A model generated the notes under the pieces. It saw nothing but the letters and a program-made list of their open reading frames with translations. It ran no database searches and had not been told where the DNA came from. Positions 10,671-53,684 of a stretch of 64,000 nucleotides of DNA are shown here, in pieces. The translations under genes were made by a program, and so were the position numbers. The DNA comes from Eledone cirrhosa (taxonomy: Eukaryota): contig OZ024746.1 of the NCBI GenBank assembly GCA_964016885.1, positions 90,954,001 through 91,018,000 of the forward strand, read 5' to 3'. Numbering within the stretch: the stretch's first letter is position 1; every line of letters begins with the position of its first letter.

Positions 10671-10863
10671 TAGGAACAAGTAAGACCCCGACGGCTGAGC
10701 TCAAGCCGTTTCGACGGCTAATTCTGTACAGAATTAGCCGTCGAAATGGCTTGAGCTCAGCCGTCGGGGTCTTACTTGTTCCTATTACCCACTCTACTAC
10801 CCTAAGTATTGAGTACTTTGGTGCGTTATGGTCCACCTGGTTCCTTACCACATTTCCTTCGTT
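10671..10863 (+). mobile_element. Palindrome-plus-tail element, copy 1
   Basis: Near-perfect palindrome 10671-10784 plus ~80-bp tail, within (TA)n. Confidence 0.9.
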
Positions 10864-11580
10864 ATATATATATATATATATATATACACTCTCATGAACC
10901 TGTGTGTATATATATATATACACTCACATGAACCTGTGTATATATACAGACACTTAAATGACTGTGTGTATATACACTTACATAAATGTGTCTATATATA
11001 GATACACTTACATGGATGTGTATACATGCACTTACAGGAATGTGTGTATATATATATGCACTTACATGAATGTGTGTATATATATATACACATGCACATA
11101 CATGAATGTGTGTATATATATATATATGCACATACATGAATGCGTGTATGTATATATATATGCACATACATGAATGTGTGTATATATATATATGCACATA
11201 CATGAATGTGTGTATATATATATATGCACATACATGAATGTGTGTATATATATACATGCACATACATGAATGTGTGTATATATATATATATGCACATACA
11301 TGAATGTGTATATATATATATATACATGCACATACATGAATGTGTATATATATATATATATATACATACATGCACATACATGAATGTGTATATATATATA
11401 CATGCACATACATGAATGTGTATATATATACATACATGCACATACATGAATGTGTATATATATATACATGCACATACATGAATGTGTATATATATATATA
11501 TACATGCACATACATGAATGTGTGTGTATATATATATATATATATATATATATATATATATATATACACATATATATATA
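10864..11580. repeat. Minisatellite of tgcacatacatgaatgtg-(ta)n units
   Basis: Direct reading. Confidence 0.9.
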
Positions 11581-11704
11581 TACAACAACCCAGGGTTTTA
11601 CACACAAATCAGACATAGCAACAACCCAGGGTTCTACACATCCCAGACATAGCAACAACCCAGGGTTCTACACACAAATCAGACATAGCAACTCCATAGC
11701 AAAT

Positions 11705-11732
11705 CCCGAGCAACGCCGGGGCATTCTGCTAG
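11705..11732 (+). mobile_element. Helitron 3' terminus (hairpin plus CTAG)
   Basis: cccgagcaacgccggg...ctgCTAG-t. Confidence 0.7.
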
Positions 11733-13339
11733 TGTTTCAATAAAACACATCGTAATTATTTTATACAAAGAGTCTTTCTTCAAATATTCTTATTCCTCTC
11801 AACTGCTTTTTTCCCTTCACTCCACCCACTTCCATATTCAAATTTTGATGGAATCCCTTATTGCTTTCACCACTACAACTTTCAAGCACTTCCATGCGTT
11901 GTGAAACCTTCTTCTCCAACATCTATTAATGACAAGCTAATTAATGTTTAATGATAATAAAATGCAGACGTTTCATTCCCACCACCACCACCATACCCCA
12001 CCTGACTCACCCCCAACACTTTATTCCAATTATCCACTATCCATTCTCATCTCATGTTGATGTTATCACCTTTATAAAAGTGATTAGAAATAACTTTACT
12101 AACTCTTACTGGAAATACTATATATGAATACAATGAAAATTGCCTTCGGGAAATTTGGCTTCGTCTACTTAGCTAAAATATACTTCAGCCTCCAGCTACT
12201 TATAATACAGAGCAAGACCCTAATTTGCCTAACGATAGAATTTTCTTCGTATATAATGAATAGTAAATTCTCTCCTACTACCTGTGAGTATTGTCTATCT
12301 TCAATTCTTTCTTTACAGGTACCTTCCAACGTTTAAGTGTGCCATTTCTCTCCCTCGCTTATTTTATGCTCCAAGACACTGACTTTATAAAACTTCCTTC
12401 CATCTCAATAACTCGTCCTTGTTTATTACTCCCTGTTGGACATATCTTTAGAAAAGCTAGCAGAAAAACCACCGTTCCGGTGGTTTTCTGCTAGTATGTG
12501 TAGTGTGTATATTGATATTATACGCAAGTATATATGCATGTAGATATTATACATCAAATAAAATCGTAATTGACAATATACACAGAAATTGAACGAAGAC
12601 TGTGTTACACTGTCTTATGTGATCAGTAACATAATCCATGATACATTAAAAAAAGACGATATTATACATAAACTGCATTAGGAGAAAATTAGTGACAGAA
12701 ATATATGACTATTTATTTAAACGATCACTAACCGGAAGTGTTGATATTTGGAAGTTTTAAAGAAGTGAATCTTTAAATAAGTAATAAAATATATTTAATG
12801 AACAGCCACGAAATTTAGTAGATAAATTATGTAATATTCATTCATTATTTATTCAAAGTAATCCAACTTATTTTACTAAGGGGATAACAAAAATTATAAA
12901 CCGTACGCAGTCCCGCGCTTCTTACTTTATTATAGTTTAGATAATTTAAACAGTATAATTGCATTTTTTTCTCCAACGCATTTCTATGAGACTTTAACCT
13001 TTCCAGTATATAACCTGACAGTTGTCTATAAGAAATTAAACTGTTTGTAACTAGTTTACATTGGAAGGCCCCCGAGAAAGCCCTGCTACCACCTTTAGCA
13101 AAATAAAAAATAAATAAAATAAAAAACATAGATGAGCCAGCAAGGGGTCCCTCTATGATAGCACTTGATATACTAGAAGCAGCAGTCAATTCTTCTTCAT
13201 AATACATCAAGCAGTGTAGTGTGTAGTCCTATATCCAAAAGAAGGGACTGTCGAAGCTGGAATGACGTTGATCGAACACAGCTCTACTGAATCCCATGGC
13301 TCACCTTCGGTTAAACAACAGAGTCTTTGACATAGTCTA

Positions 13340-50058: not shown

Positions 50059-50062
50059 TATG

Positions 50063-51781
50063 CCTCGTTTCGACTTTCTCTAAAGATATAGGATTAGAGT
50101 TTAACCAGGATAAATGTTCTTATATGATTGTAAAGCGAGGAAAAACTGCAAGCCAGTCTCGCAACATTTTTATCAATAGCCAAACTGTTTCACTGATATC
50201 TGACGAGCACTGCTACAGATACCTGAGGATTACTGAGAATATTTCTTATGGTGGTATTTGTAATACAGAACGCATAATCAGGGTATATTACACTCGGTTA
50301 AGAAAAGTATGGTCATCGGAACTCTCTTCGCACTATAAAACAGTTGCTGACAATGTGTTTGCTGTGCCTGTCCTAACACCAACGTTTGGAATACTCAATT
50401 GGACGATAGACGAAATCCGAGCAGTTGATGTTGGAACTCGAAAAATACTAAACAACACCGGAAACTTCCACATCAACAGTGACATAGACTGCCTTTACTT
50501 GAAACGTAAGCAGAGGTAGAGGCCTAACATCAGTCCAGACAACATTTGAATGTCGTATCATATCCCTCCGACAACATTTACGAACCACGAAGCGTAGGAT
50601 TCCATCTATTGAGCAAGTCTATCTGCATGAGACTGGTAAGATCATGAGAGTTGGGAAGGAACTCCTCGAGAGATATTCCTTGTGTGATAATCAAAACTCA
50701 AACCCAGGGAAATTACCCAGCAGTACCACAGTCAATCCATGGATGAAAAACTACATGCTTGTCAGCAAAATATCATGCATGGATGTGTTTCCAGGAAGCT
50801 CCAGAGTGAGAGAAATATAGATAAACAAAGCAGTCTATCTTGGACCAACAACCGCTATATTGGCTCCCACTTTGAAAGATACACTTTTGTAATCCAAGAA
50901 CAGGAAATGAATACAAAATACCTGATTCACAAAAGAGATAGGGATGCAGGCAAAACACCTAGATGTGACAACAAGTGCATACGCTGCAGAATTAACATCC
51001 AAGATATCACCCATGTCATAAGCAGCAGTCCACAGATGTCTTCACGGAACTATCTACCTATGAAGCATGATGTAGTGACCAAAACACTGTACAATGCAAT
51101 CCGTAGAAAAGATAGCCCCGATAATAAACACATTAAAAACTACAGCAATGCGGAAGACATACATATACATAATATGAAAGAGTACTGGGGGAATGTTCCA
51201 GTAAAACCCCCAATAAAATGCAGTCATAACAGACCAGCTATAATGATATGGGACAGGGAAAAGAAGGCATGCACAGTAGTGGAAATTAGCTGCCCAGCAG
51301 ATGCCAATATAATATCAAAGATTAGCAAAAAGGAGAATATCTATGCAAAACTAATGAGAAATCTGCAGATACTCCACCCTGAATACACCTTCAGATTTAT
51401 ACCTGTGATTATTGGGGCACTGGGGTATGTTAGTAACTGCCTCAATACAAATCTTGAGAAGCTAGGCTTCACAGAAGCAGGAAGAACACAACTAGTTAAG
51501 AAATTATAAGTACAATCCATTAATGGAACAGTAAATATATGTAAAACATTCCAAAAATTCTGCATCTAATAACTGCATATACACTTGTACAGATACAAAG
51601 CATATACACATGCACACATACAACTCAAAACATACAGTAACATCCATATCTGCACACACATGCATGCAGACATACATACATATCTACCTAATTGATGTTG
51701 TGTAAATTCCAATGTGAGAGTCTTGTATCTATGTTAGAAACCGACTCTCTCTCTCTATTGGCAAACATTTGTGAAATTATA
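50063..51781 (+). mobile_element. 5'-truncated R4/Dong-like LINE, family B (decayed)
   Basis: [57 protein letters not shown]; frameshifts. Confidence 0.85.
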
Positions 51782-53564
51782 CATACGAACATGCGTACAT
51801 GCATACATACATATACACATACATGCATATATATATACTCACATACATACATACATATATACGTACATACATACATACATACATACATACATACATACAT
51901 ACATACATACATACATACGTACATACATACATACATACATACATACATACATACAACCAACAATAAATGGGTATTTTCATATTTTTTGCTCCCAGCTATC
52001 TAAAAGTTGTGTGTGTGTGTGTGTGTGTGTGTGTGTGTGTGTGTGTGTGTGTGCGTACACGTGTGGCTTTGTGTGTGTGTACGTACACGTGTGGCTTTGT
52101 GTGTTTTTGTATGTGTATGTGAGGGTGTATGGGGTGCATGTGTGTGTGTGTGAGTGTGTGTGTGTGTGCATGTGTGACTGTATTCGTGTGTGTACGTGCA
52201 TGTGGGAGTGTGCATGTGTGTGGGGGGGGGGCATGTGGATGTTTACATATATCTACATGTATGTGTGTGTGTGCATGTGTATGTGTATGTGTATGTATGT
52301 GTATGTGTGTATGTATGTGTAGATGTATGTGTGTATGTGTGTGTATGTGTGTGTGTATGTATGTATGTATGTATGTATGTATGTATGTGTGTGTATGTAT
52401 GTATGTATGTATGTATGTGTGCATGTATGTATGTATGTATGTGTATGTATGTGTGTGTGTATGTATGTGTGTATGTATGTATGTATGTGTATGTATATGT
52501 GTGTATGTATATGTGTGTATGTATATATGCATGCATGTATGTATGCATGTATTTATGTATGTATGTATGTATGTGTGTATGTGTGTGTATGTGTGTGTAT
52601 GTATGTATGTGTGTGTATGTATGTGTGTGTGTGTGTGTGCTGGCGTTATTTCAGTTAAGCTGACCGATTAAACTGAACAATTTGTTAATGAATTATTAAG
52701 GAGGGGGGGGGTAGTGATGAGAGGGAGGGGTGAGGGGGGTAGTGATGAAAGAGGGAGGGGGATAGTGATCAGGGAGTGAGGGAAGAGGAATAGTGATGAG
52801 AGAGGGGGAGAGGGGGAATAGTGATTGGGAGAGGGATGGGGAATAGTGATGAGGGAGAGGGAGGGGGGAGGGGGATAGTGATGGGCTAGAGGAAGAGGGG
52901 TGAGAGGGGGGAATAGTGATAGAAGTGTGAGAGAGAGAGAGGGGGGTAGGAAGGGGAGTAAAAAGTATTAATCATGGCTAAAAACAAAAAAAGGAAATAT
53001 TTGAGCTAAGAACAATGTTTAAGATGTCTTCTAGCAAGACATCTCCCTAGATTCTATCACTGGTGGCCATCTTTTCTTGCTCTCTTGAAATCAGAGATAA
53101 AAAGGAATCATAAATGCTTCTCTTGAAATAATTTTTAACTGAACCTAGAAATTGTGACCTTTCTAATTACAATCTTAACAAAAAGAGAAAATAAACTCAT
53201 CTCTGATAGAAATGTTTGCAGATTTGCTGAAATATGAAAATTACCAAAACATTTTCTTATTGCTTATTATTCTTTTTTCAATATTCTGTTTCTTCTTTTC
53301 CTTTAATTCCCTTCCCTTTTTTTCCTCTATGTTGTCTTCTTGTCTTTCTCTTCTCATCTATTTCTCCTTCTTCTCTATGTAAATGCACATTTCTCTTTAA
53401 ATAAACATTTTTTGTTGTTGCAAATATAAACGATAGTTCGCAGTGTATCTTAAAATTTCTTTTATTCTCTCAGAACAGATTTATCAAATTCTATTTGTGT
53501 ATTCAATCTTATAAGCTATAATGTGCTATATATATATATATATATATATATATATATATATGTG

Positions 53565-53684
53565 TAGGAAAAAGTACGACCCCGATGGCAGAGCTCAAGC
53601 CTTTTCGACGGCTATTTCTGGACTAGTACAGAAATAGCCGTCGAAAAGGCTTGAGCTCTACCGTCGGGGTCATACTTTTTCCTA
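53565..53684. mobile_element. Palindrome element, copy 5 (no tail)
   Basis: TAggaaaaagta..tactttttccTA, 120 bp, in TA-rich flanks. Confidence 0.9.

Follow-up and report, generated by a model that had tools for sequence, protein, structure and literature searches.

How an insert of only 115–205 bp comes to hold the same sequence twice, head to head, together with an extra piece at one end, is the question raised by five palindromes in a 64,000-nucleotide stretch of DNA from Eledone cirrhosa (NCBI GenBank assembly GCA_964016885.1, contig OZ024746.1, positions 90,954,001 to 91,018,000 of the forward strand), here called the window. The window is animal DNA with 36% G+C, is rich in microsatellites and retroelement fragments, and holds dispersed repeats that appear octopus-like. 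The palindromes, numbered copies 1–5, start at 10671, 28817, 40793, 44426 and 53565 within (TA)n. An earlier note, made from the letters of the window, had drawn attention to them and had proposed that one arm is regenerated from the other, by fold-back synthesis or by conversion within the hairpin, and, tentatively, that their centre derives from the hammerhead ribozyme of a Penelope-like element (PLE). The analysis presented here suggests that the five elements are probably severely 5′-truncated 3′-end insertions of one high-copy PLE family, with an inverted copy of that end and a one-sided tail.

Anatomy, parent and shared descent of the arms

The five palindromes, their TA-rich flanks (5/5 copies), the tail shared by four of them and the different centre of every copy were all found as the earlier note had described them, and a blastn search of the window returned these five loci and no sixth. 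With up to three mismatches and a loop of up to 12 nt admitted, the arms of copies 1–5 measure 55, 52, 34 (the decayed copy at 40793), 63 and 54 bp, compared with a longest arm of 16–17 bp in five shuffles. Under the same limits, and after masking of microsatellites, six hairpins with arms of at least 30 bp were found in the window, namely the five copies and one at 34518.

Copy 1 (10671–10784) consists of an antisense arm, a zero-spacer centre at 10727–10728 and a sense arm, followed by a tail at 10785–10864 (+) that is bounded by both fixed termini of the family. In copy 2 (28817–28927; tail 28928–29007, +) the arms are identical over 54 nt around a 3-nt spacer, and two family alleles are present in each arm. 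The oldest is copy 3 (40793–40903; tail 40904–40982, +), the arms of which are separated by a 1-nt spacer and by seven events over about 55 nt. Copy 4 (44426–44550) has a 7-nt spacer, the longest parent-derived centre, and its tail lies on the minus strand at 44345–44425, where both ends of the tail coincide with termini that recur across the family and adjoin (TA)n (loose ends before 44344 and 44425). Copy 5 (53565–53684) is tail-less, has the tail-less terminus at both ends, runs into TA on either side and has a centre that is symmetric about TA with one mismatch; the centre of copy 1 is likewise symmetric about TA. The tails of the other four copies differ pairwise at 2–11 positions over the 76–77 nt compared, and three of the copies lie within a few percent of one another. 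The mirror ends at the tail-less, or inner, terminus in all five copies, and the centres, all different, lie about 10 nt or less from a single hairpin apex, with a spacer of 0–1 nt in three of them (copies 1, 3 and 5). Target-site duplications are unreadable within the flanking TA runs. RNA of an arm plus tail folds no better than shuffles (z from −0.7 to 0.9), and a 51-codon open frame across arm and tail has no look-alike in the protein atlas and no sign of coding.

Public sequencing runs provided a view of the family beyond the window. The segment 44326–44532 was compared with four of 24 listed runs, 12 listed rows with small shares being counted as no evidence. The sequences fitting it number 15,131 contigs in run X1, 344 contigs in X6, 22,273 reads in X23 (a restriction-site-associated DNA, or RAD, library) and 34 contigs in X4, which bears another organism label; the family is therefore very abundant and not confined to one label. 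The following counts are those among the loose-end and variant rows listed, 30 letters of each continuation being visible. Two fixed outer ends, 81 nt apart and each joined to TA runs, occur in all four runs: the tail end in 214, 10, 8376 and 3 contigs or reads and the tail-less end in 114, 10, 3741 and 3 (X1, X6, X23 and X4, respectively). In X23 and X1, the tail-end terminus accounts for more loose ends than any other position.

The same runs hold a parent with a single arm, for which the earlier note had proposed a search. Non-mirror continuations were found behind 44487 in X1 (87 contigs), X6 (7) and the differently labelled X4 (1) and behind 44475 in X1 (102), X6 (7) and X23 (1514). Since the listed pieces that contain tail sequence stop at 44472–44485, these continuations sit on the tail-bearing arm; tail-bearing arms thus pass the centre into non-mirror sequence, and a one-armed parent exists. 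The first continuation carries TTTTAGCC, the partner of the central GGCTAA, and the parent RNA therefore has a natural hairpin exactly where the palindromes have their centres. The centres of copies 4 and 5 start with parent-like letters; motifs of the non-mirror continuations had no match in the window. Furthermore, 7234 reads of X23 end at 44478, coinciding with an AATT site of the RAD library. These ends probably represent the enzyme cut, and X23 is for that reason uninformative on the palindromic fraction. The one-armed parent, the two termini and the truncation at the hairpin are observed directly. In addition, a diverged subfamily with an outer stem longer by 3 nt, an altered tail end and another upstream hairpin is abundant in X1, X6 and X23, and the outer end of copy 40793 resembles it.

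The two arms of a copy resemble each other more than they resemble arms elsewhere. In a gapped alignment, arms of the same locus differ by 1, 0, 7, 1 and 3 events in copies 1–5 (mean 2.4), compared with a mean of 6.35 over 20 pairs from different loci; the true pairing has the lowest total difference, tied by one other of 120 pairings. The expectation of the earlier note that arms pair by locus was thus borne out. Ten non-majority states are present in both arms of a copy (two in copy 2, four in copy 3 and four in copy 5), and 16 columns are changed in one arm only, 11 of them in copy 3. The variants that had been called specific to copy 28817 do occur in both of its arms and are not private to it: they are common family alleles. 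One makes up 38% of the summed contig depth in X1 (a depth that is not taken as copy number) and 1831 of 10404 plus-strand reads in X23; the other makes up 18% and 1624 of 11125, respectively. Alleles common to copies 3 and 5 reach 30% and 39% in X1, and the variant named for 53565 is absent among the variant rows listed from the run data. Because the arms co-vary in this manner, they descend from one source element, and later conversion is not needed; because changes confined to one arm exist, ongoing conversion is unsupported. The arms are identical by descent from one source element and have decayed independently after insertion. Regeneration of an arm therefore holds in one sense, as the mirror arm was newly made from a one-armed parent, and lacks support in the other, since the 16 one-arm-only differences speak against conversion within the hairpin.

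The sense arm contains C-GAAA, a 5-bp stem with a 7-nt loop that includes the palindrome GAGCTC, and then GUC, which corresponds to the 3′ half of a type I hammerhead. Stem III had been called atypical, a description that does not fit this arrangement of GAAA, stem and GUC. The half motif lies at 10743–10765 (+) in copy 1, with one CpG-type change in the stem, and at 44445–44468 (−) in copy 4, on the tail-bearing arm; a strict descriptor of it passes in five of the ten arms. A palindromic stem III loop has been noted for PLE hammerhead motifs (PMC4209133). A scan for CTGANGA...GAAA found 13 sites in the window, none of them in the five-copy family, and no CTGANGA directly before GACGGCT, as the earlier note had envisaged for a parent, was seen in the non-mirror continuations, which extend from GAAA for about 50 nt (one subfamily) or about 40 nt (the second). 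The central stem had also been read as ribozyme stem II; the GAC that would partner GTC was not seen in the parent. The window copies and the visible continuations hold the 3′ half and no complete hammerhead in a terminal repeat. Since the sequence of all copies goes on for about 45 nt above the would-be cleavage site, the template RNA was uncut there. Of the hammerhead, only the 3′ half is present, and it is probably inactive in cis.

Probable Penelope-like origin and the making of the mirror

PLE insertions are described as highly 5′-truncated, in many cases with a truncated copy placed at the 5′ end in inverted orientation, with a tail of 30–40 bp at one end and with a bias for (TA)n (PMC8557442). 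The five elements share this anatomy (PMC8557442; PMC3846280): an inverted, 5′-truncated, head-to-head copy is present in five of five, a one-sided tail bounded by two fixed termini in four of five, and insertion into (TA)n or AT-rich DNA in all five flanks and in the loose ends of the runs. From this anatomy a PLE origin of the family appears quite probable. The assignment is anatomical because no open reading frame (ORF) is linked to the family.

Such an insertion could have arisen as follows. The endonuclease of the element, presumably a PLE reverse transcriptase (RT)–endonuclease, would cut (TA)n, and reverse transcription would start at either of two fixed RNA sites 81 nt apart and halt at the apex of the natural hairpin, some 55 nt above the inner site. 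In the same event this end would be copied a second time, in inverted orientation, both arms thereby taking over the alleles of one source element. The segment that separates the start sites would be left as the one-sided tail. The mirror itself may result from priming at both cut ends, the 3′ ends of the two cDNAs being joined head to head via short self-complementary bases. Such priming would yield precisely the order of antisense arm, junction and sense arm, with the tail as the distance by which the start sites are offset; copy 53565 would then be the case in which both cDNAs started at the inner site.

The origin of tandem and inverted PLE structures is listed as unresolved in the literature (PMC8557442), and the same PLE origin can be combined with a different way of making the mirror. 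In this alternative, which competes only with the two-ended step, nascent cDNA would pair with itself at the hairpin, be copied back and be trimmed or joined at the inner site. Self-priming has indeed been proposed for the palindromes reported at inverted PLE junctions (PMC3846280). The clustering of the centres at the natural hairpin agrees with such folding back, as do two other elements of the window that have copy-back geometry, namely a 127-bp inversion at 1058–1312 and an 843-bp foldback at 1329–2171 with a hammerhead core at its apex. However, a separate reason is then needed for the stop 81 nt short, at one fixed site, in all four tailed copies; the spacers of 0–1 nt in three of five copies are also awkward for it, and the 39-bp terminal inversion at 59725–59763 in a stub of another element is not adjacent to its template. 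Fold-back is accordingly a possible, if somewhat doubtful, account.

Between the two, two-ended priming is slightly favoured. It is preferred because copy 5 has the inner terminus at each end and the mirror ends at that terminus in all five copies, because spacers of 0–1 nt would be too short for an intramolecular primer hairpin, and because the neighbouring, hammerhead-bearing stub at 59539–59763 carries an inverted copy of no more than its last 39 bp. Furthermore, self-complementary bases are the only means by which two identical cDNAs can anneal, and the TA-symmetric centres of copies 1 and 5 agree with this. The fuller proposal is made tentatively: each copy may record a two-ended retrotransposition, in which a PLE dimer primes cDNA on each side of a (TA)n cut, with either RNA start site in use, and the dead half-ribozyme hairpin serves as stop and joint.

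Several results weigh against the PLE reading or against its two-ended step. No ORF or RT was linked to the five-copy family in the 64-kb window or in the 30-letter continuations, and searches of viral, metagenome and prokaryote collections returned no relative. The tail of 81 bp is twice the described 30–40 bp. Apart from the single X4 contig, the consensus agreement of the loose ends is only 0.50–0.73. The half-hammerhead descriptor passes at seven other places in the window, among 97 CGAAA sites, and matches an average of 3.0 times in 200 shuffles, so the half motif can arise by chance. No CUGANGA was seen in the continuations over the same distances from GAAA (about 50 nt and about 40 nt in the two subfamilies), and copy 4 has no hammerhead match among its 26 Rfam matches. 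In curated sequences of the PLE groups Naiad and Hydra, GTCGAAAC was the only arm or tail motif found. As regards the two-ended step, the inversion at 1058–1312 mirrors only the 127 bp beside its junction, short of the 3′ end, which is the geometry of fold-back; the natural loop is not intact in any of the five copies; and under either model the short spacers could be due to loss of the tip after insertion.

Less probable alternatives

A parent with a complete and active type I hammerhead, its CUGANGA lying far upstream beyond a very long loop II, or with a hammerhead completed in trans, would make the five elements retrozyme-like stubs. The canonical-looking GAAA, stem III and GUC point this way, as does the hammerhead core with a 40-nt loop II in another element of the window, and the view of the parent extends over 30 loose letters. 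However, no CUGANGA lies within about 50 nt, there is no Rfam match, and the copies reach 45 nt above the would-be cleavage site, with an uncleaved template. Non-long-terminal-repeat (non-LTR) retrozymes are tandem repeats, each with a complete type I hammerhead (bioRxiv 2026.07.22.740005), and the family consists in the window of dispersed single palindromes, with no tandem arrays. A full-hammerhead parent is thus unlikely.

The five elements might instead be a TA-targeting foldback miniature inverted-repeat transposable element (MITE), with GG...CC ends, 55-bp terminal inverted repeats (TIRs), subfamilies homogenized within the master copies, variable internal deletions and a tail that is captured flank. 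DNA transposons that target TA microsatellites exist (PMC4486113), the shared variants can be read as subfamily alleles, and the non-mirror continuation could be internal sequence. Copy 53565 does look like TA-TIR-TIR-TA; it is the only copy with inverted repeats at both ends, whereas in the other four one side extends 81 bp beyond the TIR, to a fixed terminus that is not itself a TIR. A uniform size and interior was not found, there being five centres in five copies, and these centres, all different, are no more than about 10 nt away from the same hairpin apex. Both continuations lie on the tail-bearing arm, and no DDE transposase was found among the nine ORF fragments of the window that were scanned. 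A foldback MITE is quite unlikely, and it keeps its small probability because no ORF was reached.

Maintenance of the arms after insertion by intra-hairpin conversion or cruciform repair is highly improbable: long perfect palindromes can undergo revision at their centre and the arms of copy 2 are identical, but the 16 one-arm-only differences, the seven arm events in about 55 nt of the oldest copy, whose tail differs from that of copy 1 at 7 of 77 positions, and the inherited nature of the alleles shared by the copy 2 arms all argue against it.

The family is of use in deciding between fold-back and two-ended priming because it is short and abundant, and both arms, the termini and the junction fit in one read, so that the two can be separated by counting. 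If two-ended retrotransposition is true, it would account in one step for three features of PLEs in general, namely their inverted copy, one-sided tail and palindromic junction, and this family would supply thousands of natural junctions as proof. Such stubs are also liable to be called MITEs or microRNA-like hairpins by automatic annotation.

Neighbouring elements and comparison with known systems

Other elements of the window include a remnant of a PLE with RT and C-terminal GIY-YIG endonuclease at 460–1312 (−), with a minimal hammerhead core near 545. Its ORF at 632–1216 (eight homologues among 381 candidates) belongs to another family than the five palindromes, and the 127-bp 5′ inversion at 1058–1312 is centred near 1185, inside this ORF. 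The stubs at 26309–26468 (+) and 59539–59763 (−) are related to the hammerhead-bearing end at 460–600, and the 39-bp inversion in the latter (59725–59763) is a copy of its own terminus at its 5′ end. The outer arms of the foldback at 1329–2171 are 305 bp long and 97% alike; the complete-looking core at its apex (minus strand, 1782–1714) reads CUGAAGA, a 4-bp stem II closing a 40-nt loop, GAAA, a palindromic stem III and GUC. One of the ends of the foldback is duplicated over 19 bp at 1312–1330, and its Rfam hammerhead match is far below threshold (E 4.5). Its appearance is that of the end of a PLE or retrozyme which has folded at stem I and kept its ribozyme core. In 150 of the 456 rows of the whole-window Rfam search none was at gathering score, and microsatellite-miRNA matches dominated; copy 4 gives sub-threshold matches to many miRNA models.

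An AT-rich palindrome of about 148 bp at 25088–25282, with a one-sided tail of about 45 bp and set in (TA)n, has the same anatomy as the five copies; no significant kinship with them was found, as a similarity equally high came up in 287 of 1000 shuffled sequences and in 52 of 1000 random stretches. At 34486–34588, outside TA runs, a 69-bp near-perfect palindrome is followed by a partial third copy of the arm. A PIF1-like helicase fragment at 35838–36695 (−; PF05970, E 4e-43) is presumably from a Helitron. Fragments of non-LTR retrotransposon ORFs lie at 7654–8877 (+), 49977–51509 (+), 56674–57513 (−) and 24030–24443 (+), three of them with zf-RVT, and a tandem array at 61369–63033 has about 25 copies of a 65-bp unit, preceded by 50-bp units.

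The arm pattern had no match in viral and metagenome contigs, and the tail 21-mer had none in prokaryote genomes. Matches of a tail 16-mer in 91 metagenome and five viral stretches are due to chance, as blastn of the 96 loci aligned at most 22–28 bases. No paper with the sequences of the family was found in the literature; Repbase and Dfam lay outside that search, and the family may therefore be catalogued. A 2026 repeat annotation of O. vulgaris counts 190 Penelope-like families (PMC13282606).

Among described systems, the type I hammerheads of PLEs and non-LTR retrozymes (PMC4209133; PMC7229834) have C-GAAA, a stem III with palindromic loop and GUC in common with the family, whereas CUGANGA, a partner for stem I or II and tandem repeats were not seen here. 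Foldback MITEs on TA microsatellites such as MuTAnT (PMC4486113) share the long TA-flanked inverted arms and the high copy number, and differ from the asymmetric ends of four of the five copies and the different centre of each. The Naiad elements of Octopus (Naiad_Ovul and Naiad_Obim; PMC8557442, supplement) also target (TA)n. They have no canonical hammerhead, and none was seen here over the roughly 50 nt of parent visible upstream. Compared by eye, their 3′ ends are similar: about 100 nt before the terminus they have GTCGAAAC, a stem containing a palindromic hexamer, and GGGG. Naiad_Ovul bears the annotation 'HHR_half_core', a label for a first core half far from the second (PMC8557442). Five arm or tail motifs of 10–12 nt had no match in curated Naiad and Hydra sequences, and five more of 8–11 nt had eight scattered matches, none at the end of an Octopus element. 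As no further sequence match to Naiad was obtained, the likeness is a lead and not an assignment; furthermore, cephalopod Naiads are described as old remnants (PMC8557442), whereas three copies here differ by a few percent.

The PAc element, Poseidon of Anolis (Frangieh et al., 2024; PMC11167929), offers a biochemical parallel to the proposed course of events. The purified PLE protein cuts and extends both strands, the two RNA start sites bound a tail, and the RNA template is uncleaved, as proposed here; PAc has a full hammerhead, whereas the five-copy family has the 3′ half only. The two-ended joining would go beyond the PAc data, which, in the portions of that paper drawn on here, leave inverted copies aside. 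The insertions of endonuclease-bearing (EN+) PLEs (Arkhipova et al., 2013, PMC3846280; Craig et al., 2021, PMC8557442) share with the family the head-to-head inverted copy, the palindromic junction, the tail at one end and (TA)n targets without a readable target-site duplication, and the differences from those described lie in an insert of 115–205 bp, a tail of 81 rather than 30–40 bp and truncation at one hairpin. The element type itself is not new; the five palindromes are most likely a clean new example of a described pattern, and represent an abundant, probably uncharacterised family that shows the known PLE insertion pattern in miniature.

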